Shown here: positions 2,215 to 57,100 of the stretch, piece after piece
Layout of the letters: each line of letters starts with the position of its first letter
Position numbering within the stretch: the first letter of the stretch is position 1
Assembly (NCBI GenBank): GCA_016182085.1
Contig: JACOYB010000004.1
Location: forward strand, 4,250-68,249
Length of the DNA: 64,000 nucleotides
Reading direction: 5' to 3'
From: Candidatus Magasanikiibacteriota bacterium
GTDB lineage: Bacteria; Patescibacteriota; Patescibacteriia; Magasanikbacterales; GWA2-37-8
The notes under the pieces: generated by a model
The model's database searches: none
The model's input: the letters and a program-made list of their open reading frames with translations, nothing else
What the model was told of the DNA's origin: nothing
Position numbers and translations under genes: made by a program

Positions 2215-2228
2215 TTAGAAATGATTAT

Positions 2229-2441: not shown

Positions 2442-2451
2442 TTTTAATTGT

Positions 2452-5214: not shown

Positions 5215-5277
5215 AATAATCGGAGTAGTGATACAATGTATACTAAGAAGTGTCTATAAAAGAAAGGATCTGGAAAT

Positions 5278-6390: not shown

Positions 6391-6440
6391 ATGGTAAAGA
6401 TAAAAAGATTGTAAATAATTTATAGAGTATTTATTATTTT

Positions 6441-35527: not shown

Positions 35528-35561
35528 TTCATTAATGTCATCATTACAATAGAATAAATAT

Positions 35562-39437: not shown

Positions 39438-39475
39438 CACAGATTTAGACAGATTATAAAGGGATTACACAGATT

Positions 39476-39510
39476 AAAAAACGGCCGCCATTACAGCGGT
39501 CGTTTTTTGT
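39476..39510. terminator. Bidirectional rho-independent terminator after rpoC / TrmB-family gene
   Basis: aaaaaACGGCCGC-cattaca-GCGGTCGTtttttt. Confidence 0.7.
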
Positions 39511-39520
39511 ATTCCCCATT

Positions 39521-40255
39521 TTATAATCGATCCCACAGTAGCTTAAAGATTTTTCGCTGAAACTGGGCAAAAGTCGGGCTTTCAATAATAGACGCAACTT
39601 CATTTTTAAAATCAATAAATGATACTTTGTCCCGGTAAATAAATTGGGTTATATCATACATAAATAGATCGTATTTACTCGGTACGGTTTTAAATAAACG
39701 GCCCAAGCGTTTTTCTTTGCCCTTACGATTTTTGGTAATTTCATTGGTAATAATCAACCAATCAACCTCAGTTTTATCTAAAATACGTTCCCGATATTGG
39801 CGCGGAATATACCGATCATATTTAGTATGATCTTTTGGTGATTCGTAGCGGTAGATTATGTCTGATTTTTTAACAGTGCTGAGAAAATCAAAATACGCCT
39901 GGCGGATACCTTGCTCGCCATAGTAATACCGAATTACCGGTCGGTTTAGACTGGCAGCGTAGGTATGCATAAGAGCCGGAAGCTCTGTGCTTAGATTATC
40001 CTCAATGCGTCTGACCAGATGTTTTAGATTTTCCGGATGTTCAGCGCTATATACGTTACGTTTCCCTTTTTTAGATTCTAGCACCAACCCTTTTTCTATA
40101 AGGATAGGTATATGACGATAGATCATAGGACGATACAAGCCAGTGCGCTCGGCAATATCGCTTATGCCAAGCACACCGCCTTCCACGAGCGTTCGATATA
40201 TAGTGCTTTCTTCTTGGCTTAAGCCCAGTTGTGACAGAGCATCAATTTTTTTCAT
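39521..40255 (-). CDS. TrmB-family winged-helix transcriptional regulator
   Basis: N-terminal LSQLGLSQEESTIYRTLVEGGVLGISDIAERTGLYRPMIYRHIPILIEKGLV typical of the TrmB N-domain. Confidence 0.6.
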   Translation of the reverse strand: MKKIDALSQLGLSQEESTIYRTLVEGGVLGISDIAERTGLYRPMIYRHIPILIEKGLVLESKKGKRNVYSAEHPENLKHLVRRIEDNLSTELPALMHTYAASLNRPVIRYYYGEQGIRQAYFDFLSTVKKSDIIYRYESPKDHTKYDRYIPRQYRERILDKTEVDWLIITNEITKNRKGKEKRLGRLFKTVPSKYDLFMYDITQFIYRDKVSFIDFKNEVASIIESPTFAQFQRKIFKLLWDRL

Positions 40256-40446
40256 AGTATTGTATTATTAGTAATACACTTTTTATATTACTTTTTTATT
40301 TAATAAATAGATACTTTTAGCTTTATAAAATAATTATAGTACGAATTATAGTACAAATCAACATATAGAGTGGGTAGATTGGTAGAGTATAGATAGATCT
40401 TTCACAATACGAAAAACCAAAGTGTCAGATCTAGAAAGGATTGTGT

Positions 40447-41319
40447 ATGAAAACGCTTCTTATCGGTCTTGGTCAAATTGGTCTCGGCCTCATCGCTCCC
40501 ACTTTCCAGAAGGCAGGATACGCAATTGTTGGTACTGATGCGAATGAAGATCGTCTCAGCGCCCTTCGTCATGGATATATTCTCAAAACTCCCAGCAAAG
40601 TTGAGAATATAAATATTGATGTCGAAAGTATGGATAAAGTCACGGAAAATTTTGATTTAGTTGTGACCTCTGTTGGTCGGAAACATTTAGGCAAGGTTGC
40701 GGTTTGGTGCCAGGAGAAAGGAATTGTTGCTCCTGTGCTTATGGCAGAGAATCTGCCCGATCCAGTTAGTTTTTTTCCTGAGCAAATCCCGATTGTTATT
40801 GATCGAATTTGCCCCAGAATAGAAACACAGGGTAGCTTGTTGACGGTCATAGCTGAAGACTACTACAAGATTGTATCTTTGCAGAATCCGATAACTAGTT
40901 CGTTGGCAGTGGTGGAAGCCGTGGAACTCAAAGATTCGGAATTGAGCGTTGAAAGCAGAAGGAAGCAGAAGATGTTTACAGTGAATACTTGCCATGTTCT
41001 TGCTGCTCTTTTCGGCCAGCAGTTTGGTTGTTCGTTGGTTGAGGAATCTGCCAGACATCCCGAAGTTGTATCCAGAATTATGGCTGTGGTTTCCGAGGTC
41101 GGGCCATGGTTGGGTTTTGACTCTCAAGGCGCCGCAGCAAGAGCAAGTGAGATCCTGTTGAGATTTGCTAATCCGATTCAAGATTCACTGTCCAGAATCC
41201 TTAGCACAACTAACCGTACCTCTGCTCTAAGGTATATTGAGATCCCGCTTAACGGCCTTCGTTCGCTGGGTATTCAAGCGCCCGTCTTGGAGGAAGCCTA
41301 TTTGCTCCTAAGTTCCTAG
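40447..41319 (+). CDS. Putative NAD(P)-binding dehydrogenase (GxGxxG Rossmann N-terminus; possibly mannitol-1-phosphate dehydrogenase-like)
   Basis: LLIGLGQIGLG at N-terminus; divergent from sugar-regulator-like TrmB gene; specific family uncertain. Confidence 0.4.
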   Translation: MKTLLIGLGQIGLGLIAPTFQKAGYAIVGTDANEDRLSALRHGYILKTPSKVENINIDVESMDKVTENFDLVVTSVGRKHLGKVAVWCQEKGIVAPVLMAENLPDPVSFFPEQIPIVIDRICPRIETQGSLLTVIAEDYYKIVSLQNPITSSLAVVEAVELKDSELSVESRRKQKMFTVNTCHVLAALFGQQFGCSLVEESARHPEVVSRIMAVVSEVGPWLGFDSQGAAARASEILLRFANPIQDSLSRILSTTNRTSALRYIEIPLNGLRSLGIQAPVLEEAYLLLSS

Positions 41320-41688
41320 TAATATAGTCTTGAGGTTGTTCTTTCCTTGGCTCACCGTTTGTGTGGGCCTGGTTGTTTTATAAGTCGGTAGAGAAAAAAT
41401 TTAAAATATACTAGTTTAGATAGATTTATGACTATTTTTTACCATTTTTCCTCTTGACCCCGTATAATTACGCCCGAAATCGCTTATGCAAATTGCGATA
41501 TATGGGATTATTTTACTAAAGTTGATAATAATTAATTTTAAAAGAAATTATCATATAGTTGCGATTACCAATTTGCTCGGGCGTATCTATACGGGGAATT
41601 GTGGATAAGTTGAGTAAAAATATGGTATAATAATTACGTAATTGGCGGATGAGAACTTTTTCAAATAATTATTTTTTAAAATAAAAAT

Positions 41689-44600
41689 ATGCGCGGAGGG
41701 AAATTTCGTCTTTGTCGTGGCTCGGTCACGATTTTTTTGGTTTTTACTGTTGGTATCCTCGTGGCGGGAGTGCTGGCGGTAGTTTTGGTGTTGCGACCAA
41801 AAACATCGGTGCCGGACAAGGGTTTGCCAGGGATATCTAAAACAATGGGCGGATTTGTGAAGACGCCAATTGGCGCAGCTACGCCGTCAGTTAAATTGGA
41901 AAGCCGTGTGCTTGAATTGACACCGGCGACAACTAAAACATTTTTAACGGAATTGGCGCAATCTGATAAATCAACGCAGCATGTCTATGTCCGCTTGGCG
42001 CGGTATCCGCAACTGGTTGATCGGGATACGTTGGAAAAAGCCGGAGTGACGCTTCTGGATTTTCTCGGCCAGCGCGTGTATATGGCCGTTGTTTCTGGTA
42101 AATTCACGGTTGATGATTTGGGCAAACAGCCGCTGGTTGAGGCCTTGGCAAAGATTGAGGATGCCGATAAAGCTCATCAAGATATTTGGAAAGAGAGATT
42201 TTTTGTTTTTGTCGTTAAACCGGGAGAAGATGAAAATGAGCCGGAGATTAATTATGTGCAAAATTCCGACGGTACGTTGAATTTAACGGTAGAATTTTTT
42301 GCCGATGTGGCCGCATCAGTCGCGAGAAATATTTTACAGGACGCTGGCGGCGCTAGAAGCGCCATGGGGCGTGGGCTGTGGGAAGTGAAATCAGCGCCCG
42401 CCTCGGCTGTTCGTCGGTTGGCTGCTTACGATGCAGTGAAACGTGTTGATCCGGGTCCGGCGCCATTTATGGCGGACAACAATCGCAGCCGCGCCGCGCT
42501 TAATGTTGATACCGTGCAGAATTTCACCACGGCCACCAATGTTTTTGGCGGTTTGAGCGGTTTGGGCGTGCAAGCGATTATTTTTGAAAGCATGATGGAT
42601 GAAACGCATGATGATTTTAGTTTGCTTGATGCCGCTAATAATATTATCGGCAGTCGGGTTGCCCGCCATCAGCCATCGGCGCATGCTACTCATGGCAGTC
42701 ATGCTACGCATGTGGCGGGTATTGTCGGCGGCAACGGGTTTATGAGTACAAGCACTATTATTGTTCAATGTCCGGGGACACCGGCGGTCAGCGGCACCCC
42801 TTGGCTGTTCCGCGGCATGGCACCACAGGCCACGCTTCTTGATTATGCCAGTTGGGAACGGACGCCAGACGGCATTCTTGATGCGGTTGCTAATTTTGGC
42901 ACCGAGTTGTCCAATAATTCATACTCAATTACATATGACGGGGATTATAGCGCCGCTATGCAAATCAACGACCGGCTGATCCGCGGTTCGGCCGTTTCAT
43001 CAGGGGGCGTAGCAGTGCCAGGCCGATCGATGATGTTTTCGGCAGGTAATCATGGATCCTATACATATAACGGCGGCGAGCAGGTTGGCTATTTTGCTCT
43101 GACTAAACAAAATAAAAATGACACCATGGTGGGGAATTGGAATGCCTGTGGCGCTACGCTGGCCGGTGGCAACATTGGTACCAGTATGGGTCCTGCTTAT
43201 GACGGGCGTATCAAGCCGGATGTGGTTGCTTCGGGCAGCTATGTTATATCCACGCAAAGCAACAATAATGGTTACACCAACAAATCAGGAACCTCAATGG
43301 CTACTCCGGCAGTGACTGGCGTCAGCGCGCTAGTTCTACAACAATACGCCACGACTTATGGTGTCAATCTTGATGTGAATCCGCCGCGTCCTTCAACTAT
43401 TAAAGCAGTATTAGTTAATACCGCAACTGATATTGACTGGGCAACGGCCGCGCCCGCCGGCTATGTTTATCCGCCCGCCGGCGGTATAACTGGCTGCGCT
43501 CCCGGGCTTCTCAATAATCCGGCATTTTGCGTGGGTGACGGCCCGGTGGTTTTCTTTCCCGGTCCTGACTTTGCGACTGGTTGGGGCATGGTTAACGCCC
43601 AAGCCGCGGTGAATGCGGTGGCGGCGCAAACTTTATTTGAAGATCAGATCGATGTGACTGGACAATTCCGTGGCATACAGTTTAGCGTTGCTTCGGGTAC
43701 AACCAATATGCGCATGACGCTGGCCTGGGATGATGTGGAAGGCAGTCCCGCAATTCTCGATACGAGCCCGCACTTGGTTAATGATCTTGATCTTGAGCTG
43801 ACTGACCCGGCCGGAGTCGTGTTTTACCCTTGGCAGTTGAATCAAGCCATTGCTGATGTTGCGGGTGTGCCATTGCCTAATGAACAGCAATATCCTGGTA
43901 CCGGTATCGTAATTACCACTGCGTTGGCACCGACAGCCGCGCCTATTGACTGCGATGGCAGCGCTGCTGATCCGAATCCATGCATACCCCAGAACGACTA
44001 TCCGGGCACCATTCCGGTAGCGCCCGCCGGCCAGGGGCGTGATCACCTCAACAATGTCGAGCAAGTATTTGTCTCGGCGCCGGTTGCCGGCACGTGGAAC
44101 TTGCGCGTTACCGGCTTCCAGATCCCTGATCCGGCTAATCCCCAGCCATACTCCATCGCCGGTTTGTCGGCCGCCGGCAATGCCTGGCCTGACCTGACGC
44201 CGATTGGCGATGTAACTATTGATGAAGGCGCGACCATGATTATTCCAATTACCGCCGTTGATCCCGAAGGCACGCCAATCACGCTTACCGCCAGCGGTCT
44301 GCCACCGTTTGCCGCCTTTGCCGATTTGGGTGGTGGCGCCGGCACGCTTACTCTGACACCAAGTTGCACTGACACTGGCGTCTATCGCGGTCTGGCTATC
44401 ATTGCTACTGATGGCGGCGCGCCGATAAAATATGAAGGCCAATATATAACCATTACCGTTAATCCGGCCAACTGCGCTCCGGCTATTGATCCGGTTGCCG
44501 ATGTGACTATTACCGAAGGCGATACACTTGATGTGCCGGTGAGCGCTACCGATCCGGAAGGCGATGCGTTGGTTTTGGCCGCTCCTGATTTGCCGCCGTT

Positions 44601-46827
44601 TGCCGCCTTTGCGCCAACAGGTCCGGGTACCGGGGCAATAAATTTGGCGCCAAGTTGCAGTGATGCCGGTGTTTATGCAGACCGGACGATTACTGCCACC
44701 GATAGTGGCGCTCCACCCCAGACAATGACTGAACTCTTTACGATTACCGTCGACGATGATTTGGTTCCGGTGGCTAATGCCGGAGCGGACATCGTTACGT
44801 ACAGCGCCATGGCTACCGTACTCAACGGCGCCGCCAGTAGCGATCCGGAGGCCAAGCCATTGACCTATAGTTGGGCACAGACCGCGGGTACACCGGTGGT
44901 TCTGGCCGGCCTCGATACAGCCACGCCGAGCTTTACGGCACCAACGGTCGCCGCCAGCGAAACGCTTACCTTCACCGTAACCGTTACCGATTCGTGCGCG
45001 CAACCTGCCGCCGACACTGTCGTTGTGACTGTCCGTCCGCTCGTTGATGCTTCTATTATCCTCGATCGTTCCGGCAGTATGATGTGGCCTGTGCCGGCCG
45101 AGGGCGGCGGCACCATTACCAAGATGAACTCATTAAAAAATTCGGTCAATCTTTTCCTCTCGCTCTTTGTTAATGAACGCCCGGGCGCGCCTGATAAGCT
45201 CGGTATTGTTAAGTTTGCCGACAACACGGCGGCGGATACGCAAACAATCCGTCCGCTGGCCGATGTCGAACCGGCGGACATAGCGCCTGCCGGCGCCGTG
45301 AGCGCGCTGATTTCCGGTCTGACCACCGATGCGACCACGTGGATTCGCGGCGGTCTTAATCTTGGATTGGCGGAACTGTTCGGTCCGGCCGGAGTAGCCA
45401 GTCACAAAAAAGCGATGGTACTCTTCTCCGACGGCAAAGAAAATGAATCGCCTTTGACGCAGGATCCGCCGCCGGCGCCGGATGGGGTTTTAAGCGATCC
45501 TGATTTTATCAGTACGTCAGTATATGCGGTCGGCTTTGGCGTCGCTGGCGCGGCCGGCGATACCGGTATTGATGAGGCGCTCTTAACCACCATTCAAAAC
45601 GTCGGTGCCGCCGATGGTTTCGTCAATGTTACCGCCGAGCCGTTGGCGCTTACCAAGTTCTTTGTTGAGGCGTTGGCCACCATGTTCGATCAAACCATAT
45701 CGCTTGATCCGGTGACCACGTTATCCGGAGCCGGGTCATCGTTCCAGTCGGCTACCATCAGTAGCGCCGATCGCCAGGCCACGTTCGTGCTTACTTGGAA
45801 TCAGCCGCAGACCGATGCGCTCGACCTTAAACTGCGTACGCCCGAAGGTGAACTGATTACTACCGCCGACGCCGCGCCGGGAACACCGATTGAATATGTG
45901 AGTGGCGCGACGTTCAAGTACTTTATCGTGCGTTTTCCGCTTACCGGTCGTTTGCGCGGCATTCACGCCGGCACTTGGCAGATGGAAGTCAGTCGCAATC
46001 AGGCGCCCGCCAATCAGCTGGCGACCTTTGCCACGGCGGTCATGGTAGATAGTCCTAGTTTGCGCTGGATGCCTTCAATACCATCATCTATGCTGTTTAC
46101 CGGGGATGAATTCGGCATCCGGACATCGCTGCTTGAAAACGGCAAGCCGATTGCCAATGCCAAAGTGTTTGCCGACATTGAACGCCCAATAGTCAACCCG
46201 CATCAGGTTGTGGTCACGGCCAAGCTCGATCCGCGCCAAGCGTATATTCCATCTGTTCTCAAAACCGATCCGCCGTCGCCGTATGACCAGAAATTGCTTC
46301 AGATTATTAAAAACGCCCGCGGTAAAAATCCATTTCCTGTGAGCAAGGAGCGGGTGCAACTCTTTGATGACGGTAAGCATAATGATGGCAAAGCGAACGA
46401 TGGCACGTATGGCGCCAATCTAACTAAAACCAATGTTGGCGGTGTCTACCGCATTCATCTGCGCGCCCAAGGTAAAAGTTCGCAGTACGGGGCATTTACC
46501 CGTGAGTCCAGCCGGAGTATTACCGCTATCATCAAAGCTAGTCCCAAGGCATCGAATGTTACCATTGCGCCGATTACCAAAGCTTCAGCCCGTGGGACCA
46601 TATACCAATTGACGGTGACACCGAAAGACAGCCAAGGAAACATAGTTGGCGCTGGCTATGCTAGTATGGTTAAAGTAAGTGGCGCCGATATCAAGCCGAT
46701 TGAAGCGGTAGAAGACAAGACCAATGGCAGTTACACACTGCGTTTTACGGCCGACCCGCGGGCCATTCTGACTGTCCGGTTTGGTGATGAGAAGCTTGCC
46801 AGTATGGTAGTTGAAAAATCTCAATAG
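41689..46827 (+). CDS. Giant (1712 aa) secreted subtilisin-like serine protease (S8) with cadherin-like/Ig-like repeats and a von Willebrand factor A domain
   Basis: Signal/TM; HGSHATHVAGIVGG (His) and GTSMATPAVTG (Ser) motifs; three ~90-aa repeats (DPEGTPITLTASGLPPFAAF..); VDASIILDRSGSM vWA MIDAS motif. Confidence 0.85.
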   Translation: MRGGKFRLCRGSVTIFLVFTVGILVAGVLAVVLVLRPKTSVPDKGLPGISKTMGGFVKTPIGAATPSVKLESRVLELTPATTKTFLTELAQSDKSTQHVYVRLARYPQLVDRDTLEKAGVTLLDFLGQRVYMAVVSGKFTVDDLGKQPLVEALAKIEDADKAHQDIWKERFFVFVVKPGEDENEPEINYVQNSDGTLNLTVEFFADVAASVARNILQDAGGARSAMGRGLWEVKSAPASAVRRLAAYDAVKRVDPGPAPFMADNNRSRAALNVDTVQNFTTATNVFGGLSGLGVQAIIFESMMDETHDDFSLLDAANNIIGSRVARHQPSAHATHGSHATHVAGIVGGNGFMSTSTIIVQCPGTPAVSGTPWLFRGMAPQATLLDYASWERTPDGILDAVANFGTELSNNSYSITYDGDYSAAMQINDRLIRGSAVSSGGVAVPGRSMMFSAGNHGSYTYNGGEQVGYFALTKQNKNDTMVGNWNACGATLAGGNIGTSMGPAYDGRIKPDVVASGSYVISTQSNNNGYTNKSGTSMATPAVTGVSALVLQQYATTYGVNLDVNPPRPSTIKAVLVNTATDIDWATAAPAGYVYPPAGGITGCAPGLLNNPAFCVGDGPVVFFPGPDFATGWGMVNAQAAVNAVAAQTLFEDQIDVTGQFRGIQFSVASGTTNMRMTLAWDDVEGSPAILDTSPHLVNDLDLELTDPAGVVFYPWQLNQAIADVAGVPLPNEQQYPGTGIVITTALAPTAAPIDCDGSAADPNPCIPQNDYPGTIPVAPAGQGRDHLNNVEQVFVSAPVAGTWNLRVTGFQIPDPANPQPYSIAGLSAAGNAWPDLTPIGDVTIDEGATMIIPITAVDPEGTPITLTASGLPPFAAFADLGGGAGTLTLTPSCTDTGVYRGLAIIATDGGAPIKYEGQYITITVNPANCAPAIDPVADVTITEGDTLDVPVSATDPEGDALVLAAPDLPPFAAFAPTGPGTGAINLAPSCSDAGVYADRTITATDSGAPPQTMTELFTITVDDDLVPVANAGADIVTYSAMATVLNGAASSDPEAKPLTYSWAQTAGTPVVLAGLDTATPSFTAPTVAASETLTFTVTVTDSCAQPAADTVVVTVRPLVDASIILDRSGSMMWPVPAEGGGTITKMNSLKNSVNLFLSLFVNERPGAPDKLGIVKFADNTAADTQTIRPLADVEPADIAPAGAVSALISGLTTDATTWIRGGLNLGLAELFGPAGVASHKKAMVLFSDGKENESPLTQDPPPAPDGVLSDPDFISTSVYAVGFGVAGAAGDTGIDEALLTTIQNVGAADGFVNVTAEPLALTKFFVEALATMFDQTISLDPVTTLSGAGSSFQSATISSADRQATFVLTWNQPQTDALDLKLRTPEGELITTADAAPGTPIEYVSGATFKYFIVRFPLTGRLRGIHAGTWQMEVSRNQAPANQLATFATAVMVDSPSLRWMPSIPSSMLFTGDEFGIRTSLLENGKPIANAKVFADIERPIVNPHQVVVTAKLDPRQAYIPSVLKTDPPSPYDQKLLQIIKNARGKNPFPVSKERVQLFDDGKHNDGKANDGTYGANLTKTNVGGVYRIHLRAQGKSSQYGAFTRESSRSITAIIKASPKASNVTIAPITKASARGTIYQLTVTPKDSQGNIVGAGYASMVKVSGADIKPIEAVEDKTNGSYTLRFTADPRAILTVRFGDEKLASMVVEKSQ

Positions 46828-46852
46828 TATTTATTTATAATCTTCATACTAT

Positions 46853-47554
46853 ATGCCGGAACCAAAAAAGATACTCCTCGAAGAGCCATATAAGGTTTCT
46901 ACCATTCCAGTTAAACCGTGGAGCAAAAACGCGCTTGAATCCTTGCGCGGTCAGGTGAGCGACTTGTTATTTAACACCGGCGCTGTCGACCGACCGCGCG
47001 GACCGATTTTACTTGATACTACCACTACGACGCCGAAGAGGCCGCCGCGTGGACCGGTGGTCGGCGAACCTCCCGTCGAACCGGGTGCAGGCGAACCGGC
47101 AGGCGGCGGAAATCCTCTGGGCGGAGGAAATAACCAACAGCCCGACCAGCCAGCGCCGCGTGTTATTCCGTGCGACAATGTGATTATCGATGAGAGCGAT
47201 GGGGCTGGCGGCAATCCTCGTCGAGGTGGTGGCAACGGCGGTGGCATGCCGCCCGGAGCTGGCCAGCAGCCACGCGAGCGAATCGTTGAAATCCCCGAGG
47301 ATCTACAGCCATGTATATTTACCCAGCATCACACCGCGGATAACGGTGAAGGGTGGGTGGTGCTTGTCCATATCGAGGGAGGGCGCATGAAGCGAGTAGT
47401 TGTCATTGATGAGAAAGGTAACCAGCGATACATTCATCAGAATGTCGGCAAGATAATCAAGGTGCATAAAGACAATAATAAAATAACCGTGGTCGGCGAC
47501 AAGAAAACTTGTATTTACTTCATTGTCACAAATCAACTGGTTTGTTATTCCTAA
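46853..47554 (+). CDS. Hypothetical protein with Gly/Pro-rich low-complexity centre
   Basis: ORF immediately downstream of the protease, shared terminator. Confidence 0.45.
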   Translation: MPEPKKILLEEPYKVSTIPVKPWSKNALESLRGQVSDLLFNTGAVDRPRGPILLDTTTTTPKRPPRGPVVGEPPVEPGAGEPAGGGNPLGGGNNQQPDQPAPRVIPCDNVIIDESDGAGGNPRRGGGNGGGMPPGAGQQPRERIVEIPEDLQPCIFTQHHTADNGEGWVVLVHIEGGRMKRVVVIDEKGNQRYIHQNVGKIIKVHKDNNKITVVGDKKTCIYFIVTNQLVCYS

Positions 47555-47568
47555 ACAGTTTGTAAGAT

Positions 47569-47612
47569 AAAACTCCGGCCGCCTAAAACGGCCGGAGTTT
47601 TATTTATTTTTA
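47569..47612 (+). terminator. Rho-independent terminator
   Basis: aaaaCTCCGGCCG-cctaaaa-CGGCCGGAGtttta ttt attttt. Confidence 0.8.
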
Positions 47613-47797
47613 TAGGCGTTATAATGTAAAAAAATACCGTTGAGGTTTATTCTCAACGGATAGTATTTGCGCGTTAAGGCAATTCCAAAAACATTTCAAA
47701 CATCTCACAACAAGTCAATGGCCAAGCTTATGCAATAAATTGACGCACTATAAATTAAGATATACAATTGCGGGTATATACATTAAATATTTAAAAT

Positions 47798-49630
47798 ATG
47801 GCAAATGAAATATTGGTTCCGCCGGAACAAAAATTCTCGCTGTCTGTAAAATTATTATTAGCCGCGGGCGCAATTCTTGCGGTAGTCGCCGCCGCCGTGG
47901 CGGGTTATTTTTTTGCGCAGAATAAAAATAGTAATAATCAAAAACTTACTGAAAACTCTCTGCAAAATACTTCGTCATCAGTAAATAATCAACCAGTTGA
48001 AGAGGTCGTTAGTCCCACCTCAACTAATAATGCAAATGCTGAACCAATATCTATAAATTTCCCCACCACCTCTTTGCCTCAGGAAATCGCAGCAAAGATT
48101 AATTGGACCCAGCCAAATAAGCTTAACGATCTGCGCTGGTTTGTAGAAAAAAAATCATACGCGCCAGAAAATTCAGAATATGAAGTAATGATTTTAAATG
48201 AGTATTATGAAGTCGGAACCTTTGAGTATAATGGCGAGCGCGGCAGGGTAGTGTTAGTGCAAATTCAGCCCGAGGAACCGAGTTCCCCGTGGTATTTTTA
48301 TATTCTAGATTTCAAAAAACAATTTACAGTGCTGGCAAAATATTCTGGGTTTGACGGATACACTAATAAACAATTTGATTCAAATCCTATTTCAACCTTA
48401 GAGGCACATTTGGCAAACTTTGTTCCGGAAATACAAAAATTAGCAAAAGTAGATTTAAATTTTACTATTCCTGCTCTTGAATTTCCTAAAACCGTAAAGG
48501 GTCCGAAAGAGCGCCAGGTTTTAAATCTTAGAGGAGTTTATCCTCTACAGGAACGCGTTGGTTTCAGTAATGTGACGGTAAAAGCAGAGGTGCCAGTATT
48601 TGTTGATCCTCAACTCGGAATGGTGTATACATCGGCAGTTACCGGAGGTTTTTATGTACATGGTCCAGATGGCACTCGAGCTGCTTACGCACTGGAACCA
48701 GACTTCTTTAATCCAAATAGCGCCCAGGCCCAAATTATTTGGAATGACGGGTCTTGGAATGGGTATGAATATATGTACGGTGACCAGGGAGGTTGCGGCG
48801 CGATGAATTATATTTCGGTTGTTACTTCAACAGATATAACCCTAGCCAATGATTTAGCTGTAGTAGGAAAAAATAGCAAAGGAGATAATATCTATGAGTT
48901 AAAAGACAAAAATCATAGATTATTAAAATCATTTTATAGCGGCGCATATTTCCCTCAGCAGAATGGTTATAAAATAAGTTATGAAGAATTTGTTACATTA
49001 AAACCAATAATATTTTGGGTAGATCCGTTTGGCAGGTTGATTAAAATGACAAATCGACGTTTTATCATTCCGGCTGAATGCGGCAAGCCGGTTATCTATC
49101 TGTATCCGGAAAAGACTACAAATGTATCGGTGCGTGTTGAACCAAAAGGCGGCATGAGTGTTTCTGATCCGTTTTATAATGGGGGTTGGGAAGTTATGGC
49201 CGAACCAAGTGGACAGCTAACAGAATTAAAATCAAACAAAAAATATCCGTATCTTTTTTGGGAAGGCCAGGGCGATTTATATCAGCAACCCGAACAAGGA
49301 TTTATTATGAAACGAGAAGATGTTGGCAGTGAGTTGCCAAAGAAACTGGCTCGGCTTGGGCTAAACACAGCCGAGATAAAAGACTTTATGGAATTTTGGC
49401 ATCCGCGTATGCAGGAAAAGCCATATTATTTTGTAACGTTTTTAGGCACTCAGCAAATGAATCAGCTAGCGCCTCTAACTGTTTCTCCGAGTCCTGATAC
49501 AGTCGTAAGAATTCTTATGGATTTTACTCCGCTTGACCAGCCAAAAAAGGTATTGCCATTGCCACTCGGCCGTACACCAGAGCGGAAAGGATTTACCGTG
49601 ATTGAATGGGGCGGGGTCATTAGAAAATAA
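47798..49630 (+). CDS. Hypothetical membrane-anchored extracytoplasmic protein (610 aa)
   Basis: N-terminal TM; no known domain recognised. Confidence 0.5.
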   Translation: MANEILVPPEQKFSLSVKLLLAAGAILAVVAAAVAGYFFAQNKNSNNQKLTENSLQNTSSSVNNQPVEEVVSPTSTNNANAEPISINFPTTSLPQEIAAKINWTQPNKLNDLRWFVEKKSYAPENSEYEVMILNEYYEVGTFEYNGERGRVVLVQIQPEEPSSPWYFYILDFKKQFTVLAKYSGFDGYTNKQFDSNPISTLEAHLANFVPEIQKLAKVDLNFTIPALEFPKTVKGPKERQVLNLRGVYPLQERVGFSNVTVKAEVPVFVDPQLGMVYTSAVTGGFYVHGPDGTRAAYALEPDFFNPNSAQAQIIWNDGSWNGYEYMYGDQGGCGAMNYISVVTSTDITLANDLAVVGKNSKGDNIYELKDKNHRLLKSFYSGAYFPQQNGYKISYEEFVTLKPIIFWVDPFGRLIKMTNRRFIIPAECGKPVIYLYPEKTTNVSVRVEPKGGMSVSDPFYNGGWEVMAEPSGQLTELKSNKKYPYLFWEGQGDLYQQPEQGFIMKREDVGSELPKKLARLGLNTAEIKDFMEFWHPRMQEKPYYFVTFLGTQQMNQLAPLTVSPSPDTVVRILMDFTPLDQPKKVLPLPLGRTPERKGFTVIEWGGVIRK

Positions 49631-49639
49631 TTCCACGTT

Positions 49640-51460
49640 ATGTCTGTTAAAACCAAGTTGCTAATCTATATTGTTGTCATAGCGTTGCTGGCAACAATAG
49701 GGGCGGCGCTTGGTTTTTGGTTTTATAATAATAGCAGTTTTGCATCTCTACCTTCCTTCGTTAAGGAGACTTCTCAAGAAGAATCCCAGATGCACAGGGC
49801 TTATTCCATGGACGAAGGATTCTATAGTGTTTTCTTTGCCAATAATAAACAAACAAAAAATATTGAAGAGAAAGTTGTGTCGGCAGTGGTGCCGCATCAT
49901 TTAATTGCCGGACAATTTATCGGTTCTTTTTTTAATAGTATGGCAGGGCAAAAGCCGGATACGGTCGTTATTATCGGTCCGAATCATAAACAGGTAGGAA
50001 ATAGTTCTGTTATTACCAGTAATTTGTCTTGGCAAACTCCGTATGGCACTTTAAACACAAATAAAAAGTTAATTAATAAAATTATTGCTACCAATATTGC
50101 TTCTTCACATCAAGAAGTTATGGGTGATGAGCATAGTATTTCCAGCCTCGTGCCATTTGTAAAAAAAACTTGGCCTAAAGCCATGGTGGTGCCAATTATT
50201 TTAAAAAATAATGCTAAAGGCTCGGATTTAGATAGATTAGTTGAGACGTTGTCAGATTCAAAAGAAAAAATTTTAGTCTTGGCCAGTGTTGACTTCTCAC
50301 ACTATTTGCCGCAATCAGTCGCGGATTTTCATGACGCGCTCTCTATAAATACCTTAGAAAGCGGCAGTTTCCAAAATTTGCGTGAACTGGAAATAGACAG
50401 TCAGCCAAGTTTGTATGCATTATTAAAATATAATGAATATAAAAAATCACAAGCCTTTACTTTGCTGTCTCATACAAATAGCGGCGAAATTATTGGTAAA
50501 GATATAAGCGATACCACCAGTCATATCATTGGATACTATAGGGGCGGCGCCCCCGGTAAAAAACCGGCTGCTTCGGTGCAGTTTTTTGGCGATATTATGC
50601 TTGATCGCGAAGTGGCTAAAGTGATGGGCAAGACCGGGCTAAATTATATATTCAAAAATTTGCGCGCCGAAGAAGATAGATTTTTTCAAGGAATGCATAT
50701 GCTTGTGGCAAATTTGGAAGGCCCGTTTGCGCCAGCGCGAGTGTCTACAACCAAATCAATCGCGTTTCGGTTTGATCCAAAACTGGCAGGAGAGTTAAAG
50801 TCGCATGGCTTTGATGCATTTAGTCTAGCCAATAATCATAGCATGGACATGGGTCGAAAGAATGTTGAGTTTACCAGAGGAGTATTAAATCAAAATGGGT
50901 TTGGTTATTTTGGCGATGAGTATAATCAAGGTTTAGAGTATTCGTATATTGCCGGAGAAGAAAAAAATTTGCCATTTAACATAGCTTTTATTGGTTTAAA
51001 TTTTACCGAAGGGCCCTTGGATATGGTTAAAGTTAAAGAAGCTATAGATGATGCTAGCATGCAAGCCAAGTTTGTAGTCATTAATATTCATTGGGGAGAA
51101 GAATACAAGCGTAATTCCAATAAAAGCCAGCAAGATTTGGCCCACCAATTGATTGATTGGGGCGCGGACGTAATCATTGGCCATCATCCTCATGTGGTTC
51201 AGGAAGTGGAAGTATATAAGGATAAGTACATTTTTTATTCCTTGGGAAATTTTATTTTTGATCAGTATTTTTCTAAAGATACTCAAGAGGGCATGAGCGT
51301 TGGTTTAATTTTACAAGATGATGGTGGGGTAAAAGTCCATATTATTCCTTTTTTCTCCAAAAGATCCCAGGTGCAGGTGATGACTGGAGCGCAGAAAGAG
51401 GAGTTTTTTAAATGGATGAAGGAAAATAGCAGAATGGGGAGTTCTTCTTTTAGGTTTTAA
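49640..51460 (+). CDS. Membrane-anchored fusion of a Memo-like (MEMO1/AmmeMemoRadiSam protein B family) domain and a CapA/PGA_cap metallophosphatase-fold domain
   Basis: N-terminal TM; ..VVPHHLIAG..VVIIGPNH..WQTPYG..EHSISSLVPFV..SVDFSHY resembles Memo fold; C-terminal ..FFGDIMLDR..SLANNHSMDMG..IHWGEEY..IIGHHPHVVQ..YSLGNFIFDQ is the CapA signature. Confidence 0.65.
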   Translation: MSVKTKLLIYIVVIALLATIGAALGFWFYNNSSFASLPSFVKETSQEESQMHRAYSMDEGFYSVFFANNKQTKNIEEKVVSAVVPHHLIAGQFIGSFFNSMAGQKPDTVVIIGPNHKQVGNSSVITSNLSWQTPYGTLNTNKKLINKIIATNIASSHQEVMGDEHSISSLVPFVKKTWPKAMVVPIILKNNAKGSDLDRLVETLSDSKEKILVLASVDFSHYLPQSVADFHDALSINTLESGSFQNLRELEIDSQPSLYALLKYNEYKKSQAFTLLSHTNSGEIIGKDISDTTSHIIGYYRGGAPGKKPAASVQFFGDIMLDREVAKVMGKTGLNYIFKNLRAEEDRFFQGMHMLVANLEGPFAPARVSTTKSIAFRFDPKLAGELKSHGFDAFSLANNHSMDMGRKNVEFTRGVLNQNGFGYFGDEYNQGLEYSYIAGEEKNLPFNIAFIGLNFTEGPLDMVKVKEAIDDASMQAKFVVINIHWGEEYKRNSNKSQQDLAHQLIDWGADVIIGHHPHVVQEVEVYKDKYIFYSLGNFIFDQYFSKDTQEGMSVGLILQDDGGVKVHIIPFFSKRSQVQVMTGAQKEEFFKWMKENSRMGSSSFRF

Positions 51461-51547
51461 ATAATTTAATACCTGTTGATTTTTCATTAAAGGGACGGTA
51501 AAATTATGTAAAGCTTTTATACTTAAATCCTATTAAATTTTTATCCT

Positions 51548-52564
51548 ATGGATAAAGAACGGCAATTTCTTGACCCTGTCGATCTCGAATTTGACGAACC
51601 GCCAGAAGGGCAAGAACAAGAACCTCTTCCTGTAAATCCTCGGATCGAAAGTCTGCACAGAGATTTTCGTGTCGTGGAATCTAATATAGTTAAATTTAAA
51701 AAGCGCATCGATAAATTTGAAGGGGACGGTGGTAGGCAGGTAGGTGAGGTCATTAGAGATCTTCTATCAATAAAAGGTATTGTAGAAAAAGACCCAAGCA
51801 GTCTTTCGGAAGATGAGTGGCAAAAGTTTAGGGAAATATCTACTAAGATCGGAATTGGCTTTTATCGTTTTGAAAAAGAATATGATGATATTTGTAAATG
51901 GGCGGATTTGTTGGCTAGACAAGACACGGGCATAGGAAGTCAATTAGAGGCTCTTAGGGGGTTTGAACTAGAAAGTGAATTTGCAGAATTAGAGAAAATG
52001 GTTAACGAACAACATAACAAACATTTTCAACCAGCCTTTGAACAAGGCGCAGGAGTGCTAGAGAAGAATGGTCAATTTTTACAAGAAATTAGAGCGGCGT
52101 CTGAAATGTTCAGGAGTTTTGTTGCAAATGCGCGCCTACTTTTAGATGCTCTGCCACAGAGATTAGATGGATTACGTGCTCGTGCGGCTGCAGAGAGTGA
52201 CAAAGAAAGCGCCGACATAGAATTATTGGATTTACAGAAGAAATTGGATAAAATTTTATTAAAATATACAAGTACATTAAGACTTGTGCTTTTGAAATTA
52301 ACTAGAAGAATAAAGGAGGACGACGAGATGACTAAAAGAGACGAAAGCCGTTTCAAGCAGTTAGAAGCTGCGAAAGCAGAAAAAACTAAAGCGTCAAGAG
52401 AGATAGAACGTGAATTCCGCTCGTTGAAGCAATTACAAAGGCAGTTGGAGTATGTGGTAGGTGCAAGTAAGGAGGGCGCAAAAAGAAAAATGAAGCACGA
52501 TCAACCAACCCTATATGATAACTACATTGATTTTGTGGAAAGTTTTGCTAAGGAAGCAGTTTAG
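51548..52564 (+). CDS. Hypothetical cytoplasmic coiled-coil protein
   Basis: Acidic N-terminus, heptad-rich. Confidence 0.45.
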   Translation: MDKERQFLDPVDLEFDEPPEGQEQEPLPVNPRIESLHRDFRVVESNIVKFKKRIDKFEGDGGRQVGEVIRDLLSIKGIVEKDPSSLSEDEWQKFREISTKIGIGFYRFEKEYDDICKWADLLARQDTGIGSQLEALRGFELESEFAELEKMVNEQHNKHFQPAFEQGAGVLEKNGQFLQEIRAASEMFRSFVANARLLLDALPQRLDGLRARAAAESDKESADIELLDLQKKLDKILLKYTSTLRLVLLKLTRRIKEDDEMTKRDESRFKQLEAAKAEKTKASREIEREFRSLKQLQRQLEYVVGASKEGAKRKMKHDQPTLYDNYIDFVESFAKEAV

Positions 52565-52640
52565 TTATTTTGCAATTTTACTAAAAATTTCTACATACTA
52601 AGTTATTTTAAGAGGAAGAATAAAATTTAACTTTTTCCTC

Positions 52641-52669
52641 TTGATTTTTTATCTTAAAAATGGTATAAT
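52641..52669 (+). promoter_or_regulatory. Promoter TTGATT-17-TGgTATAAT (extended -10) for the yebC-ruvC operon
   Basis: Seen directly. Confidence 0.5.
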
Positions 52670-52741
52670 CATATTGTTAGATGAAAATTTTTGAAGAAAT
52701 GATGAGCAGTTCATTGCAGGGCAAGGAGTAAATGAAGTTAT

Positions 52742-52822
52742 ATGAGTGGACACAGTAAATGGCACCCCGGTAGCAGATCCGCACGGGCGGCTCGCTACGG
52801 GGTAGGCGTACTGAATTTGTAG
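52742..52822 (+). pseudogene. Short ORF in the yebC leader that re-encodes the first 8 aa of YebC (MSGHSKWH) with different codons, then a GC-rich structured tail
   Basis: ATG AGT GGA CAC AGT AAA TGG CAC versus downstream ATG TCC GGT CAT TCA AAA TGG CAT at 52856. Confidence 0.4.
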
Positions 52823-52855
52823 ATATCCTGCTTAATCAGAATTGCATAACATAAT

Positions 52856-53569
52856 ATGTCCGGTCATTCAAAATGGCATAACATTCAGGCAAGGAAAGGA
52901 AAGCAGGACGCGCTGCGAAGCGGACAATTTACCAAAGTTTCTAAACTTATCACGATTGCCGCCAAAAGCGGCAGCGATTCGGCAACAAATTTCTCCTTAC
53001 GCTTGGCCATGGAAAAAGCCAAAGAGGTGGGAATGCCGAAAGATAATGTAGAACGCGCGATAAAACGGGGTACCGGCGAGCTCGCTGGCGACCAAATAGA
53101 AGAAACCCTTTATGAAGGATATGGACCGGGAGGGGTGGCAATCCTTATAAAGTGCCTAACTGACAATAAAAATCGCACCGTTTCCGATATTAAACATATA
53201 TTATCAAAACACGGCGGATCAATGGCCGGAGCCGGAAGCGTAATGTGGATGTTCCAGCAGCTTGGTGTTATAACACTAGAAAAAGATAAAATAACCAATA
53301 AAGATGATTTTGAACTGCAAATGATAGAAGCAGGGGCTGAAGATATGGTAGAAGATGGGGAGTTGGAGATACGAACAAAAATAGATAATCTTCAAAAAGT
53401 TTTGGCTAAGATAAAAGAAATAGCGTTGGAACCGAAAGAATCAAGTTTGCAATGGATAGCCAAAGATACAGTGCCGGTAAATCAAGAAGTTGCGGAAAAA
53501 TTAGAGAAATTATTTGCGGAATTTGAGGAAAATGATGATGTAGAAAATTATTTTACCAATGCCCAATAG
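52856..53569 (+). CDS. yebC: YebC/PmpR-family DNA-binding protein
   Basis: MSGHSKWHNIQARKGKQDA.. N-terminus and full-length family match. Confidence 0.9.
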   Translation: MSGHSKWHNIQARKGKQDALRSGQFTKVSKLITIAAKSGSDSATNFSLRLAMEKAKEVGMPKDNVERAIKRGTGELAGDQIEETLYEGYGPGGVAILIKCLTDNKNRTVSDIKHILSKHGGSMAGAGSVMWMFQQLGVITLEKDKITNKDDFELQMIEAGAEDMVEDGELEIRTKIDNLQKVLAKIKEIALEPKESSLQWIAKDTVPVNQEVAEKLEKLFAEFEENDDVENYFTNAQ

Positions 53570-54144: not shown

Positions 54145-57100
54145 ATGAAAAAACGCCTGGGTTTTTCCCTCCTCATCGCCGCATTTAGCTTGGCGATCTA
54201 TGTATCTTTTTTGGCTCCAAGCAAAGTTGCGGCTGATTCAAATCTGGTTGAAGACCCGGGCTTTGAAACGAGCATGTCTAACTTTGAACCAAATCAAGAC
54301 GGTACATCCGTATCTCTTACGAGCATTAGTCCAATTAACGGATCCCGAAGTTTGGTAGTTGGCACTACTGGTTATGGTGATAGTGTATTATGGCAAGGCC
54401 GGGATATTTCTACCTTTGCTACCAAAAGATCAAATCAATTTACCGCTTCAGTGCGTATTCGTTCCACCGTTGGTTCGGCTTCAGAGATTTCTTTTTGCGG
54501 TTTGGTAGATTACGCAACTGGCGAAGGCGTTCGCAATTGTAAAGAAGTAACAGGTTCGGTTGGTGACAAAGGCACAGTCAATCTTTCCTTTGCTCTTGAT
54601 AACAGCCGAGATTTAGACAGAGTCCGTGTTGGTATTTTCCAAGAAGGAAGCGCCGCCTTACGTGAAGTTTTAATTGATGACTTGTCAGTGATATTAACCG
54701 GTATTTCCATCGGTTCGCCAGCTCCTACTCCGGTAAATGGTGCGTGTGGATCTTCAAATAACGCCACTGTTGCCAGCGCTCCAACCACCAACCTCTGTTC
54801 ATCCGGTTCTGCCAGCACGGTTGCGGGTTCCGGTCCATGGACTTGGAGCTGCGCCGGATCAAATGGCGGTACAACCGCCAGCTGCAGCGCTCAAATGATT
54901 TCTACTTCAAATCCAGTAAATGGTACTTGCGGCGCGGCTAATAACACCCAAGTTTCTTCAGCTCCAACTAACTATCTGTGTTCATCGGGTACAGCCAGTA
55001 CTGTTTCTGGTTCCGGCCCATGGACATGGAGTTGTTCGGGTACAAACGGTGGTACCAACTCTAGTTGTAGCGCTCAAACAATTACTACCCAAAATCCAGT
55101 AAACGGTGTTTGCGGCTCGGCTAATAATACAACAGTTTCAACAGCCCCAACGACTGGTCTTTGTTCCGTTGGCTCAGCCAGCACGGTGGCCGGTTCCGGC
55201 CCATGGACATGGAGCTGCGCCGGTCAAAACGGCGGCACAACCGGTAGTTGTAGCGCTCAAAAAACTATTTCTTCCACACCGCCGCCTGTTTCAAGCGCAA
55301 ATAATTTAATTGAAGAACCTAGTTTTGAAACCACTCTTTCTAATTTTGAACCAAATCAAGCCGGCACCTCTGTTAATGTTACAAATGTTAATCCCATTAG
55401 CGGCGCTAGAAGTTTATCTATAACTACCGGCGGCTACGGCGATAGTATTCTTTGGGCAGGCCGGGACATTTCTACTTTTACTACCAAAAGATCTTCTCAA
55501 TTTACCGGTTCTATCCGTATTCGTTCTACCGTTGCTTCTGCCTCCGAAATTTCATTCTGCGGTTTAGTTGATTACGCAACCGGATCCGGCGTACGTAATT
55601 GTACTAATGTTAGTGGTTCTGTTGGCGATAAAGGTACAGTTAATCTTTCCTTTGCTCTTGATAGCGCTCGTGATTTAGACAGGGTCCGTGTTGGTATTTT
55701 CCAAGAAGGCAGCTCTCCTCTTAGAGCAGTTATGCTTGATGATGCTTCCGTAGTTTTAGCAGGTATTTCTCCTCCGATTCCAGTAAGCGGAGCTTGCGGA
55801 TCATCTAATAACACCACTCTTTCATCTGCCCCAACTACCAATCTTTGTGCCAGTGGCAGCCCGAGCTCTGTATCCGGTTCGGGTCCTTGGAGTTGGACAT
55901 GTAATGGTTCAAATGGCGGCACTACTGCTAGCTGTACTGCCCAAAGAACTATTACCCAAACTCCGGTAAATGGCGTATGTGGTTCAGCCAATAACACAAC
56001 AGTTTCAACTGCTCCAACTACCAATCTGTGTTCTTCCGGTTCTGCCAGCACGGTTGCCGGTTCTGGCCCATGGACTTGGTCTTGCGCCGGTTCAAATGGC
56101 GGCACAACCGGTAATTGTAGCGCTCAGCTTTCCGGATCAACTACAATTCCACCTTCAACTAGATTTACAATCGGTCAACGCGTGCAAACAACAGCTAATT
56201 TAAATGTTAGAGCCACTCCAAATACCGCAGGTACTTTGCTTGGCACACAAACTTCCGGTTCGTTAGGCACAGTAACAGGCGGGCCAGTAGCCCAGGGAGG
56301 CTATAATTGGTGGGGTATAAACTACGATGCGGGAGCAGACGGATATTCGGTAGAAAATTTCTTAACCGCCTATTCATCTCCAAATCCTCCTCCAACTCCT
56401 CCACCGGGCGGCGCCATAACTTATCCGGCCTTTAATTTAAACGATCCGGCAGATGCCCCGCTTATTAAATTTGCAGAAACATGGGCAAGAAATTGGAATT
56501 TTGAAGGACATAATGTTGATCCTAACTTTAGCGGCAATAGCGGCAATTGGAATTATACCGAAACCACTTATGAGCCATGGCTTTTTGATCGTGCTTCCGT
56601 TGGTTACTATTTATATAAAAGAACTACCGACCCTACGCAAAAAGCTCGCTGGTATCAGCAATTTTTATCCGACTTTGCTTATTATAGAAATCATATAGAT
56701 TCAGCCGGTATATTTACTCCAAAAGGATATGGCGATACAAAATATAGTTATATCACTCCATTCTTACTTTACGAAAAAGAAACCGGAGACACTCAATATC
56801 GTCCAATTGCCCAAAGAATCTATAATGCATGGATGAGTGATTTTAGTAGCACATATTCACCAAATGGAAACGATCTTTGGACAGAACGTGAAATTGGTCT
56901 GGCTTTGGAAGCGGCCGTGTCTTGGTACGAAATTACTGGTGATTCTTCCGCGCTTACTCGCGCCAATGCTTTGATATCTCAATGGACTGTGGTGGCCAAC
57001 GCAGGCGGAGGCGTACCTCTTACTACCGTAGATCGCCATGAAGGTGGCGGAGGAACACAACTCATCACAAGTCCTTGGATGAGTGGATTATACTTCCAAG

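Follow-up and report, generated by a model that had tools for sequence, protein, structure and literature searches.

Relatives of the Memo family are metal-binding or dioxygenase-fold proteins. The pocket of MEMO1 is formed by H49, H81, D189 and H192 and binds peptide (PMC9477392). Within the PGA_cap (CapA-type) family, MslH (PDB 8GQ9), the only member known to be biochemically characterised, has been shown by crystallography and mutagenesis to be a Ca-dependent epimerase of the C-terminal Trp of a lasso peptide; its Ca(II) is held by E44, N87, H259 and H261 and binds the free carboxylate of the substrate, while the dyads H88/D91 and H295/D11 flank the substrate C-alpha and abstract and return the alpha-proton, N87, H88, D91, H259 and H295 being essential by mutagenesis (PMC10406935). 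The enzyme acts on the C-terminal residue of MslA, a peptide encoded by a neighbouring gene (PMC10406935). In Bacillus subtilis without pgsA, which encodes another protein of this type, the D/L ratio of poly-gamma-glutamate is 5/95, against 75/25 in its presence (PMC6029982). Here we describe a membrane-anchored protein of 606 aa in which a Memo-type and a CapA-type domain are fused, together with its conserved partner, an anchored protein of 610 aa, both encoded in a 64-kb stretch of a Candidatus Magasanikbacteria metagenome-assembled genome (MAG); this whole stretch is called the window throughout, and all positions are window coordinates.

Patescibacteria account for much of bacterial diversity; they are epibionts that rely on their surfaces, yet the majority of the conserved proteins found there lack an assigned function. 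The original prediction for this locus, made from the letters of the DNA, had described a three-gene block of an uncharacterised pathway, with the fusion flanked by the 610-aa protein and by a 338-aa protein, and had proposed an extracytoplasmic metallo-hydrolase system. The three open reading frames (ORFs; Table 1), all on the plus strand, lie where they had been placed. The block itself is a two-gene module next to an orphan insertion: the gene for the 610-aa protein and that for the fusion form one conserved unit, whose invariant core is the 610-aa family together with an anchored Memo enzyme, CapA being an accessory that is fused, split or absent.

A widespread fusion of Memo and CapA domains

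The 606-aa protein matches the Pfam families Memo (PF01875, aa 69-288, E 1.7e-28, 100 bits against a gathering cutoff of 27) and PGA_cap (PF09587, aa 313-542, E 1.4e-56), and over aa 69-299 it scores 114 bits against the NCBIfam model TIGR04336 (AmmeMemoSam_B), whose cutoff is 26. Its AlphaFold model, built on a 32-sequence alignment, has a pLDDT of 89.4 and a pTM of 0.86. With Foldseek against the PDB, the C-terminal half finds MslH (8gq9; E 1.7e-16, TM (target) 0.54), a match also made at the profile level (E 2.5e-22), and the N-terminal half finds MEMO1 (E 4e-14) and then LigB-type extradiol dioxygenases. The predicted architecture, a Memo-like half joined to a CapA half behind a single hydrophobic segment, is thus borne out by sequence models and by structure comparison of both halves.

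Merging of neighbouring ORFs or an assembly artefact is ruled out, as the two Pfam domains occur together in over 100 cluster representatives, each about 600 aa long, and an independent Logan assembly holds an identical fusion protein with the same neighbours and gene order. A species-level genome scan confirmed at least 590 relatives of the protein, fused or CapA-only. The Memo-CapA fusion is common in Patescibacteria, and the earlier statement that the two domains are normally separate does not hold as a claim of rarity. The literature searched mentions neither the Memo+PGA_cap architecture nor its pairing with the 610-aa family, in keeping with the predicted uncharacterised pathway, and yielded nothing on the function of AmmeMemoRadiSam, on that of DUF3160 or on further characterised PGA_cap enzymes. 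The architecture is already in public databases, and the two-gene module with its unrecognisable partner is undescribed in the literature searched.

The 610-aa family is conserved with Memo

What does the fusion travel with? In 80 genome loci, taken from the at least 590 relatives and analysed by tblastn and by all-against-all clustering of the flanking ORFs, no other neighbour comes close to the 610-aa family in frequency. Its gene stands beside the fusion in 17 loci as well as in the window, always on the same strand, on either side, and with gaps of about -4 to +32 bp (a range taken from the genome-scan loci with mapped gene boundaries). The reciprocal test started from 80 metagenome loci anchored on the 610-aa family. 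A complete Memo-CapA gene is adjacent in 37 of them and a single domain in 21, this domain being Memo in 20; 17 loci are too short to judge, and five have ample flanks yet no such neighbour. A Memo-type neighbour on the same strand is therefore present in 58 of 63 evaluable loci (92%). Among the Memo-only neighbours, some are true anchored Memo proteins of 292-311 aa that are followed by unrelated housekeeping genes, and two others carry, besides Memo, a degenerate remnant of PGA_cap.

Members of the 610-aa family are found near 14 of 29 evaluable fusion loci, whereas none is found near 27 evaluable CapA-only loci (Fisher p = 1.7e-5), so that what the 610-aa family is conserved with is the Memo domain rather than CapA. 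CapA is fused in about two-thirds of the 610-aa/Memo pairs. A single locus, L039, has a natural split, with separate genes, 4 bp apart, for Memo (296 aa) and CapA (374 aa), which argues for the two halves working together. The gene-neighbourhood conservation that had been named as a check on the block thus holds for the 610-aa/fusion pair; it fails for the 338-aa gene, of which the 80 genome and 80 metagenome loci contain no homologue.

Could the pair consist of independent envelope genes that merely stayed adjacent through inherited synteny in a compact genome? Patescibacteria genomes are indeed compact and gene-dense, and the rpoBC-...-yebC-ruvC synteny around the pair is conserved in Magasanikbacteria. 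Yet the adjacency holds across many candidate phyla despite differing flanks and flipped gene order, the pair has remained intact although both of its flanks took insertions here, and the association is specific to Memo-containing genes, so that we consider the absence of a functional unit very improbable.

Some loci show other arrangements. In two metagenome loci (L145, 3436-4958; L151, 3421-4931), a CapA-type match lies upstream of a Memo-type match beside the 610-aa gene, which is either the opposite order to the usual fusion or a pair of separate genes. In three Magasanikbacteria-type loci (L009, L013 and L016), tblastn found an anchored CapA-only gene of about 370 aa just upstream of yebC/ruvC, that is, in the syntenic position, with no gene of the 610-aa family near it. 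L013 and L016 have no detected Memo part; in L009 the original match runs into the Memo region, so that this gene could be a fusion that is partial or degenerate. PGA_cap-only proteins (about 350 aa) share 64-74% identity with the C-terminal half of the window fusion. These observations suggest that the Memo half was lost recently, or that there is a paralogue.

Both proteins are predicted to face outward

The 610-aa and 606-aa proteins each have one N-terminal hydrophobic segment and no second. Such an anchor is found in 101 of 109 members of the fusion family, with N-in favoured over N-out by 83 : 6 under the positive-inside rule, and in 115 of 118 members of the 610-aa family (96 : 5). Lipobox-like sequences occur in 16 and eight members, respectively: fusion homologues such as P0060, P0063, P0077, P0084, P0094 and P0108 carry a lipobox (L-x-G-C) instead, and the 610-aa homologues P0172 and P0187 carry variants of it. 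That both products are anchored in the membrane and extracytoplasmic, as first proposed, is a well-supported prediction from these features, and with 58 of 63 loci the 610-aa protein proves to be a true partner as well as a neighbour.

This topology bears on the names under which the fusion is filed. NCBI automatically calls it 'AmmeMemoRadiSam system protein B', and domain-system names are also used by JGI. Such names, the TIGR04336 and PF09587 scores given above and a PgsA-like anchor with an external domain would all fit a canonical AmmeMemoRadiSam protein B, or the CapA/PgsA protein of a poly-gamma-glutamate synthetase, with its partners encoded elsewhere. The usual partners were already said to be missing locally, and Pfam scans agree: AMMECR1, Radical_SAM, PgsB/CapB and CapC are absent from about 39 ORFs of the window (including about 33 further ones beyond the block), and AMMECR1, radical SAM, PgsB and PgsC are not recurrent neighbours in the 80 genome loci. 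The conserved partner is the 610-aa family, and against NF001987, the equivalog model of the MEMO1 family, the fusion scores 94 bits, where the cutoff is 295. Radical-SAM enzymes, moreover, work in the cytoplasm, and a Memo domain outside the membrane would be incompatible with such a partner. Judged by the 64 kb and the related loci, the module belongs neither to the AmmeMemoRadiSam systems nor to the poly-gamma-glutamate synthetases, and a canonical system with distant partners is extremely unlikely. The database name is contradicted by topology and context and should be corrected.

The 610-aa family and the alternative partners

The profile of the 610-aa family gathers 7,533 representatives (50% clustering), and 4,419 of these reach E <= 1e-30. 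Every member with a name is called 'hypothetical protein', and these members come from many Patescibacteria lineages, including Magasanikbacteria, Uhrbacteria, Moranbacteria, Berkelbacteria, Pacebacteria, Buchananbacteria, Taylorbacteria and Minisyncoccia. The window protein has no match in Pfam or NCBIfam even at E = 10; against the PDB, a profile search returned only noise and Foldseek found no match at E <= 1e-3. A PF28423 tag precomputed on one homologue (P0195) was not reproduced in the Pfam scan, and other listed members do not carry it. Kinship with DUF3160 was considered and rejected (hhalign probability 0.5%). Within the conserved C-terminal region stand an invariant C333 (in GGCG), the run E427-C428-G-K-P-V-I-Y-L-Y-P, a YPYLFWEG motif and a fixed C-terminal EWGGV[ILV][RQKH]. 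Genes for a DsbA-like thioredoxin and a DsbD-type protein were found in the window by Pfam scans, and their products would suit the two invariant Cys of the 610-aa protein. Longer members of the family (740-815 aa) have extensions with weak PsbP-like or TSP3 matches.

Where the 610-aa family is missing, the fusion has other partners. A DUF3160 protein (about 800-880 aa, anchored; PF11369, E down to 1e-183) is encoded directly beside it, on the same strand, in seven loci (L010, L020, L022, L024, L025, L026 and L041), whose labels include Atribacteria, Caldisericum, Beckwithbacteria and Parcubacteria; this gives a first genomic association to a domain without a known function. In seven further loci, labelled Uhrbacteria and Bacillota, a giant resembling alpha-2-macroglobulin (A2M; about 1,700-1,870 aa) is immediately adjacent. 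An ECF-type sigma factor precedes the A2M-like gene in L037, L039 and L040; mraZ-rsmH-ftsL...mraY lies downstream of the unit in L036, L037 and L040, in the last with an S9 peptidase in between. All of these alternative partners are large envelope proteins, which supports a role in the envelope without pinpointing the substrate.

Some of these loci have features of their own. The sigma factor, A2M-like and Memo-CapA genes of L037 (1725-9467), L039 (3626-11821) and L040 (3696-11596) have overlapping or abutting stops and starts, and this Uhrbacteria-type set is possibly an envelope-stress operon. In some Uhrbacteria-type loci (L018, L027, L045 and L053), one or two GerMN ('Germane', PF10646) proteins, a further kind of neighbour associated with the envelope, are encoded directly upstream of Memo-CapA or CapA-only genes.

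Is the adjacent surface protein itself what the enzyme acts upon? The fusion might be a maturation enzyme that modifies its neighbour (the 610-aa, DUF3160 or A2M-like protein) after translocation, for example by epimerisation or another change of the C-terminal residue. Three unrelated large secreted proteins stand beside the enzyme according to lineage, always on the same strand, which is the pattern expected of cognate substrates; MslH modifies the C-terminal residue of a neighbour-encoded peptide, and the pocket of MEMO1 binds peptide (PMC9477392). Among 120 sequences of the 610-aa family, 103 finish exactly three residues past the invariant WGG, as EWGGV[LIV][RQKH]-stop. However, the last residue varies (R, Q, K or H), 17 of the 120 have short extensions, and a fixed C-terminus would also be expected of a final beta-strand, such as that at 600-606 in the model. 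Memo-only partners lack an MslH-like domain altogether, and the DUF3160 and A2M partners, in the sequences inspected by eye, have no comparably conserved C-terminus. As the mark of an MslH-like substrate the fixed end was therefore set aside and is kept only as a lead, and maturation of the neighbour appears improbable as the purpose of the fusion.

Active sites and candidate chemistry

Both halves of the fusion keep invariant metal-binding and catalytic residues, the conservation of the metal-binding His/Asp set having been proposed as a check. In the Memo half, the MEMO1 residues H49, H81, D189 and H192 align to H86, H116, D218 and H221, and these, together with H87, H165, D232 and D253, are invariant in 19 sequences that include stand-alone and split forms. 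The HMM alignment stops short of the third MEMO1 metal ligand, Cys244; the fusion family has invariant T293 and S294 and H/Y at 295. Judged by these residues, the Memo half almost certainly forms a functional metal site. In the CapA half, the residues matched to MslH (Table 1) are invariant in 32 sequences.

The CapA site can be read in two ways. Alongside the MslH-type residues, the fusion family has an invariant H516-P-H518, an H-x-H motif typical of binuclear metallophosphoesterases such as YmdB. When MslH was compared with YmdB, H-x-H was seen to be part of the second metal site of the phosphoesterase, which MslH has lost (PMC10406935). At the motif level, the complete YmdB-like set of two-metal ligands (D318, E360, N399-H400, H484 and H516-x-H518) is invariant in the fusion family. 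The site thus fits MslH-type acid/base chemistry and a two-metal hydrolase alike, and the extra invariant H516 suggests a metal site different from that of MslH and possibly one with two metals.

It is conceivable, then, that the pair is a two-gene extracytoplasmic metallo-hydrolase whose CapA half is a binuclear metallophosphoesterase or amidase. The targets of such an enzyme might be the phosphoester or amide bonds of polymers from the envelope or the host, for example teichoic-acid-like polymers, nucleic acids or capsule, cut for remodelling or for nutrient scavenging by an auxotrophic epibiont. The PGA_cap domain has the calcineurin-like fold, and Foldseek searches with the fusion also reach purple acid phosphatase, SMPDL3A and Mre11; the complete two-metal ligand set that MslH lost is kept; and the S9 peptidase or A2M neighbour of some lineages points to a degradative or protective context in the envelope. 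Against this, no PGA_cap member has been demonstrated to be a hydrolase in the literature searched, both MslH acid/base dyads are kept in the fusion, and hydrolysis leaves the Memo half and the tight link to the 610-aa family unexplained. 'Hydrolase', the specific chemistry first proposed, is not supported as such, given that MslH is an epimerase (PMC10406935) and that loss of PgsA shifts the D/L ratio (PMC6029982); hydrolysis is an unlikely rival, though a live one.

A working model and the points that weigh against it

The reading that we prefer, with a probability of roughly 0.45, is that of a surface-exposed, metal-dependent module in which the CapA half is of the epimerase type and in which the Memo half and the 610-aa partner attend to the same envelope peptide or protein substrate. 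A role in the metal-dependent modification of an envelope peptide or protein is likely on the strength of the sequences, whereas its chemistry, its substrate and any physical complex of the two proteins are what we infer. In the CapA half, a metal-bound carboxylate and two flanking His/Asp dyads would take the alpha-proton from an amino-acid residue whose alpha-carboxylate is free and put it back, an epimerase-type reaction such as that of MslH and that implied for PgsA. The Memo half would bind or modify the same envelope substrate as the CapA half, and the 610-aa protein may be a scaffold that presents this substrate, or the substrate itself. Candidate substrates would be gamma-linked D/L-Glu or the C-terminal residues of peptidoglycan stem peptides, or surface proteins.

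Several points weigh against this epimerase-type model. Its chemistry rests on one characterised relative, MslH, with which the fusion shares only 16-18% identity in the structural alignment; against NF038314, the MslH equivalog model, the fusion scores 66 bits, with a cutoff of 700, and the fourth Ca(II) ligand of MslH, H261, falls on G486. The H-x-H motif described above belongs here as well. About a third of the 610-aa/Memo pairs are entirely without CapA, so that CapA chemistry cannot be the core function of the module. We know of no established enzymatic reaction for the Memo family. Finally, as a Rosetta-stone test, the long members of the 610-aa family (740-815 aa) were searched for a fusion to Memo, and none has one.

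The locus and its surroundings

The conserved pair is delimited by a sister genome (GCA_964619625.1), whose fusion protein is 95% identical and whose gene order is rpoB-rpoC-610aa-fusion-yebC. By blastn, this genome matches the window at 35442-39436, at 47734-51464 (94% identity) and from 52871 onward. The 3.7-kb block 47734-51464, promoter-like site included, is intact between two flanking insertions that are missing from the sister genome. In the nearest relatives yebC-ruvC follows directly after the fusion, and in more distant ones the order is Inositol_P-610aa-fusion-yebC-ruvC.

The larger insertion, of about 8.3 kb (39437-47733), lies between rpoC and the module and carries a TrmB-type regulator gene (39521-40255, minus strand), a Mannitol_dh_C-like dehydrogenase gene, the gene for an S8 subtilase-PKD-VWA surface giant (1,712 aa, 41689-46827) and a gene for a Gly/Pro-rich protein of 233 aa. 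Its GC content is 0.49-0.54, against 0.39 for the module; that of the giant and 233-aa genes, 0.54 against about 0.40 for their surroundings, suggests horizontal acquisition. As candidates for membership of the unit, these two genes were rejected, given the strong hairpin in between, a GC content of 0.54 against 0.39 and their absence from the sister genome. That hairpin is terminator-like and may close the upstream island and insulate the 610-aa/fusion module. It lies just upstream of the module, as does a promoter-like site that is the best sigma-70-like match of the region; the site is called by consensus match only, and the count of such matches in the region is not above that in shuffles.

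The smaller insertion, of about 1.4 kb (51465-52870), has a GC content of 0.395, like that of the host, and is on this measure not obviously foreign. It carries the 338-aa gene, whose product has no hydrophobic segment and consists to 54% of E/K/R/D/Q/L. In a search of 5.8 billion clusters, the sole match of this protein was itself, labelled Candidatus Magasanikbacteria MAG, and Pfam and NCBIfam gave no match even at E = 10. As this ORFan is also without homologues in the 160 loci and lacking in the 95%-identical sister genome, the three-gene operon is ruled out.

Table 1. Features of the two-gene module and its flanks, and residues of the fusion that correspond to the MslH active site
Feature	Position	Strand	Remarks
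Terminator-like hairpin	47565..47605	+	17-bp stem, 8 G-C pairs, T-run; closing the upstream inserted island
Sigma-70-like promoter match	47740..47768	+	TTGACG-17-TACAAT, 10/12; 30 nt 5' of the 610-aa gene
610-aa anchored protein gene ('A610 family')	47798..49630	+	Conserved partner of Memo-type enzymes, without a Pfam/NCBIfam model
N-terminal hydrophobic anchor of the 610-aa protein	47852..47902	+	aa 19-35, LLLAAGAILAVVAAAVA; model helix 15-43
Highly conserved C-terminal region of the 610-aa protein	48650..49627	+	aa ~285-610; model pLDDT mostly >90
606-aa Memo-PGA_cap fusion gene	49640..51460	+	Starts 9 nt past the stop codon of the 610-aa gene
N-terminal hydrophobic anchor of the fusion	49658..49708	+	aa 7-23, LLIYIVVIALLATIGAA; K4, K6 ahead of the anchor; model helix 3-31
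Memo-like (LigB-fold) domain	49844..50536	+	aa 69-299; invariant H86, H87, H116, E164/H165, D218, H221, D232, D253
PGA_cap (CapA/MslH-type calcineurin-fold) domain	50576..51265	+	aa 313-542; invariant D318, E360, N399, H400, D403, H484, H516, H518
338-aa ORFan	51548..52564	+	Outside the conserved module; inside a ~1.4-kb strain-specific insertion (51465-52870) between fusion and yebC
Counterpart of MslH D11	D318		GD motif
Counterpart of MslH E44	E360		NLEG motif
Counterpart of MslH N87	N399		HMM alignment
Counterpart of MslH H88	H400		HMM alignment
Counterpart of MslH D91	D403		HMM alignment
Counterpart of MslH H259	H484		HMM alignment
Counterpart of MslH H261	G486		Not conserved; HMM alignment
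Counterpart of MslH H295	H518		HMM alignment

The window is otherwise an ordinary Patescibacteria chromosome, with rpoB/rpoC, recA, ftsK, yebC-ruvC, copper P-type ATPases, BacA and giant surface proteins. One of these giants (54145-59904; 1,919 aa, anchored) has many near-identical Cys-containing repeats, …PVNG[AV]CGS[AS]NN…GSGPWTWSC…GGT…C[ST]AQ, between duplicated modules of about 330 aa, a weak GH127-like (beta-L-arabinofuranosidase) match and an InlB B-repeat; its sequence makes a surface adhesin or a glycosidase probable. At 343-8507, a cluster for copper or heavy metals comprises a DsbD_2 + HMA + cupredoxin fusion protein (850-2214) and P-type ATPases at 2332-5214 (with two HMA domains) and 6441-8507, between which lies a cyclopropane-fatty-acid-synthase-like methyltransferase (5278-6390), an unusual gene combination for a reduced genome. 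On the minus strand, at 21528-22256, a gene of the CofE-like F420-0:gamma-glutamyl ligase family (PF01996, E 5.7e-39) encodes a gamma-glutamyl-adding enzyme 27 kb from the CapA-type gene, with no linkage evident between the two; it is mentioned because CapA is associated with gamma-glutamyl polymers.

What the module may mean for the Patescibacteria surface

A dark-matter family of 7,533 representatives is now tied to a Memo-type metalloenzyme with 92% adjacency, and the two proteins form a defined experimental target in place of two unconnected hypothetical proteins. An MslH-type active site with both dyads intact is found in anchored ecto-enzymes far from lasso-peptide and poly-gamma-glutamate pathways, a new setting that bears on the question of what CapA/PgsA-type proteins do. 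A bolder reading, which we hold to be doubtful, is that of a widespread Patescibacteria surface system that chemically edits exported peptides or proteins, for example by placing D-residues or another modification in peptidoglycan stem peptides or in the partner, by means of a cofactor-independent metal epimerase outside the cell and a partner whose fold has not been seen before. If true, it would supply the first function for the bacterial Memo family and for one of the largest unannotated families of Patescibacteria, and editing of this sort, carried out outside the cell on stem peptides or surface proteins, would amount to a novel form of envelope chemistry.

Comparison with known systems

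Bacterial alpha-2-macroglobulin operons pair A2M with a cell-wall enzyme, as in yfhM-pbpC of Escherichia coli. The loci of Uhrbacteria and of a Bacillota-labelled MAG resemble them in that the gene of an envelope enzyme comes immediately after that of an A2M-like giant, in one operon; the enzyme is Memo-CapA, however, rather than a penicillin-binding protein, and the arrangement in the window differs. The analogy may serve as a lead towards a role in envelope maintenance, not as evidence for it.

With MEMO1 and AmmeMemoRadiSam protein B, the fusion shares the Memo fold and the His/His/His/Asp pocket residues, but its Memo domain is extracytoplasmic and anchored, has the additional invariant residues H87, H165, D232 and D253 and, in the window, is paired with the 610-aa family instead of AMMECR1 and a radical-SAM protein. 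With the PgsA/CapA protein of Bacillus PgsBCA(E), the fusion has in common an N-terminal anchor and an external PGA_cap domain; it differs in being fused to Memo, in standing beside an unrelated 610-aa surface protein and in having no PgsB ligase or PgsC encoded in the window. Pfam scans of the window saw no lasso-peptide genes either, and MslH itself is cytoplasmic, whereas the fusion is predicted to be anchored outside the membrane and carries a Memo domain. Its metal site also differs, with Gly in place of the ligand H261 and an extra invariant H516. What the two proteins share is the PGA_cap/calcineurin-like fold and, within it, E360, N399 and H484 of the metal site together with both dyads, H400/D403 and H518/D318.

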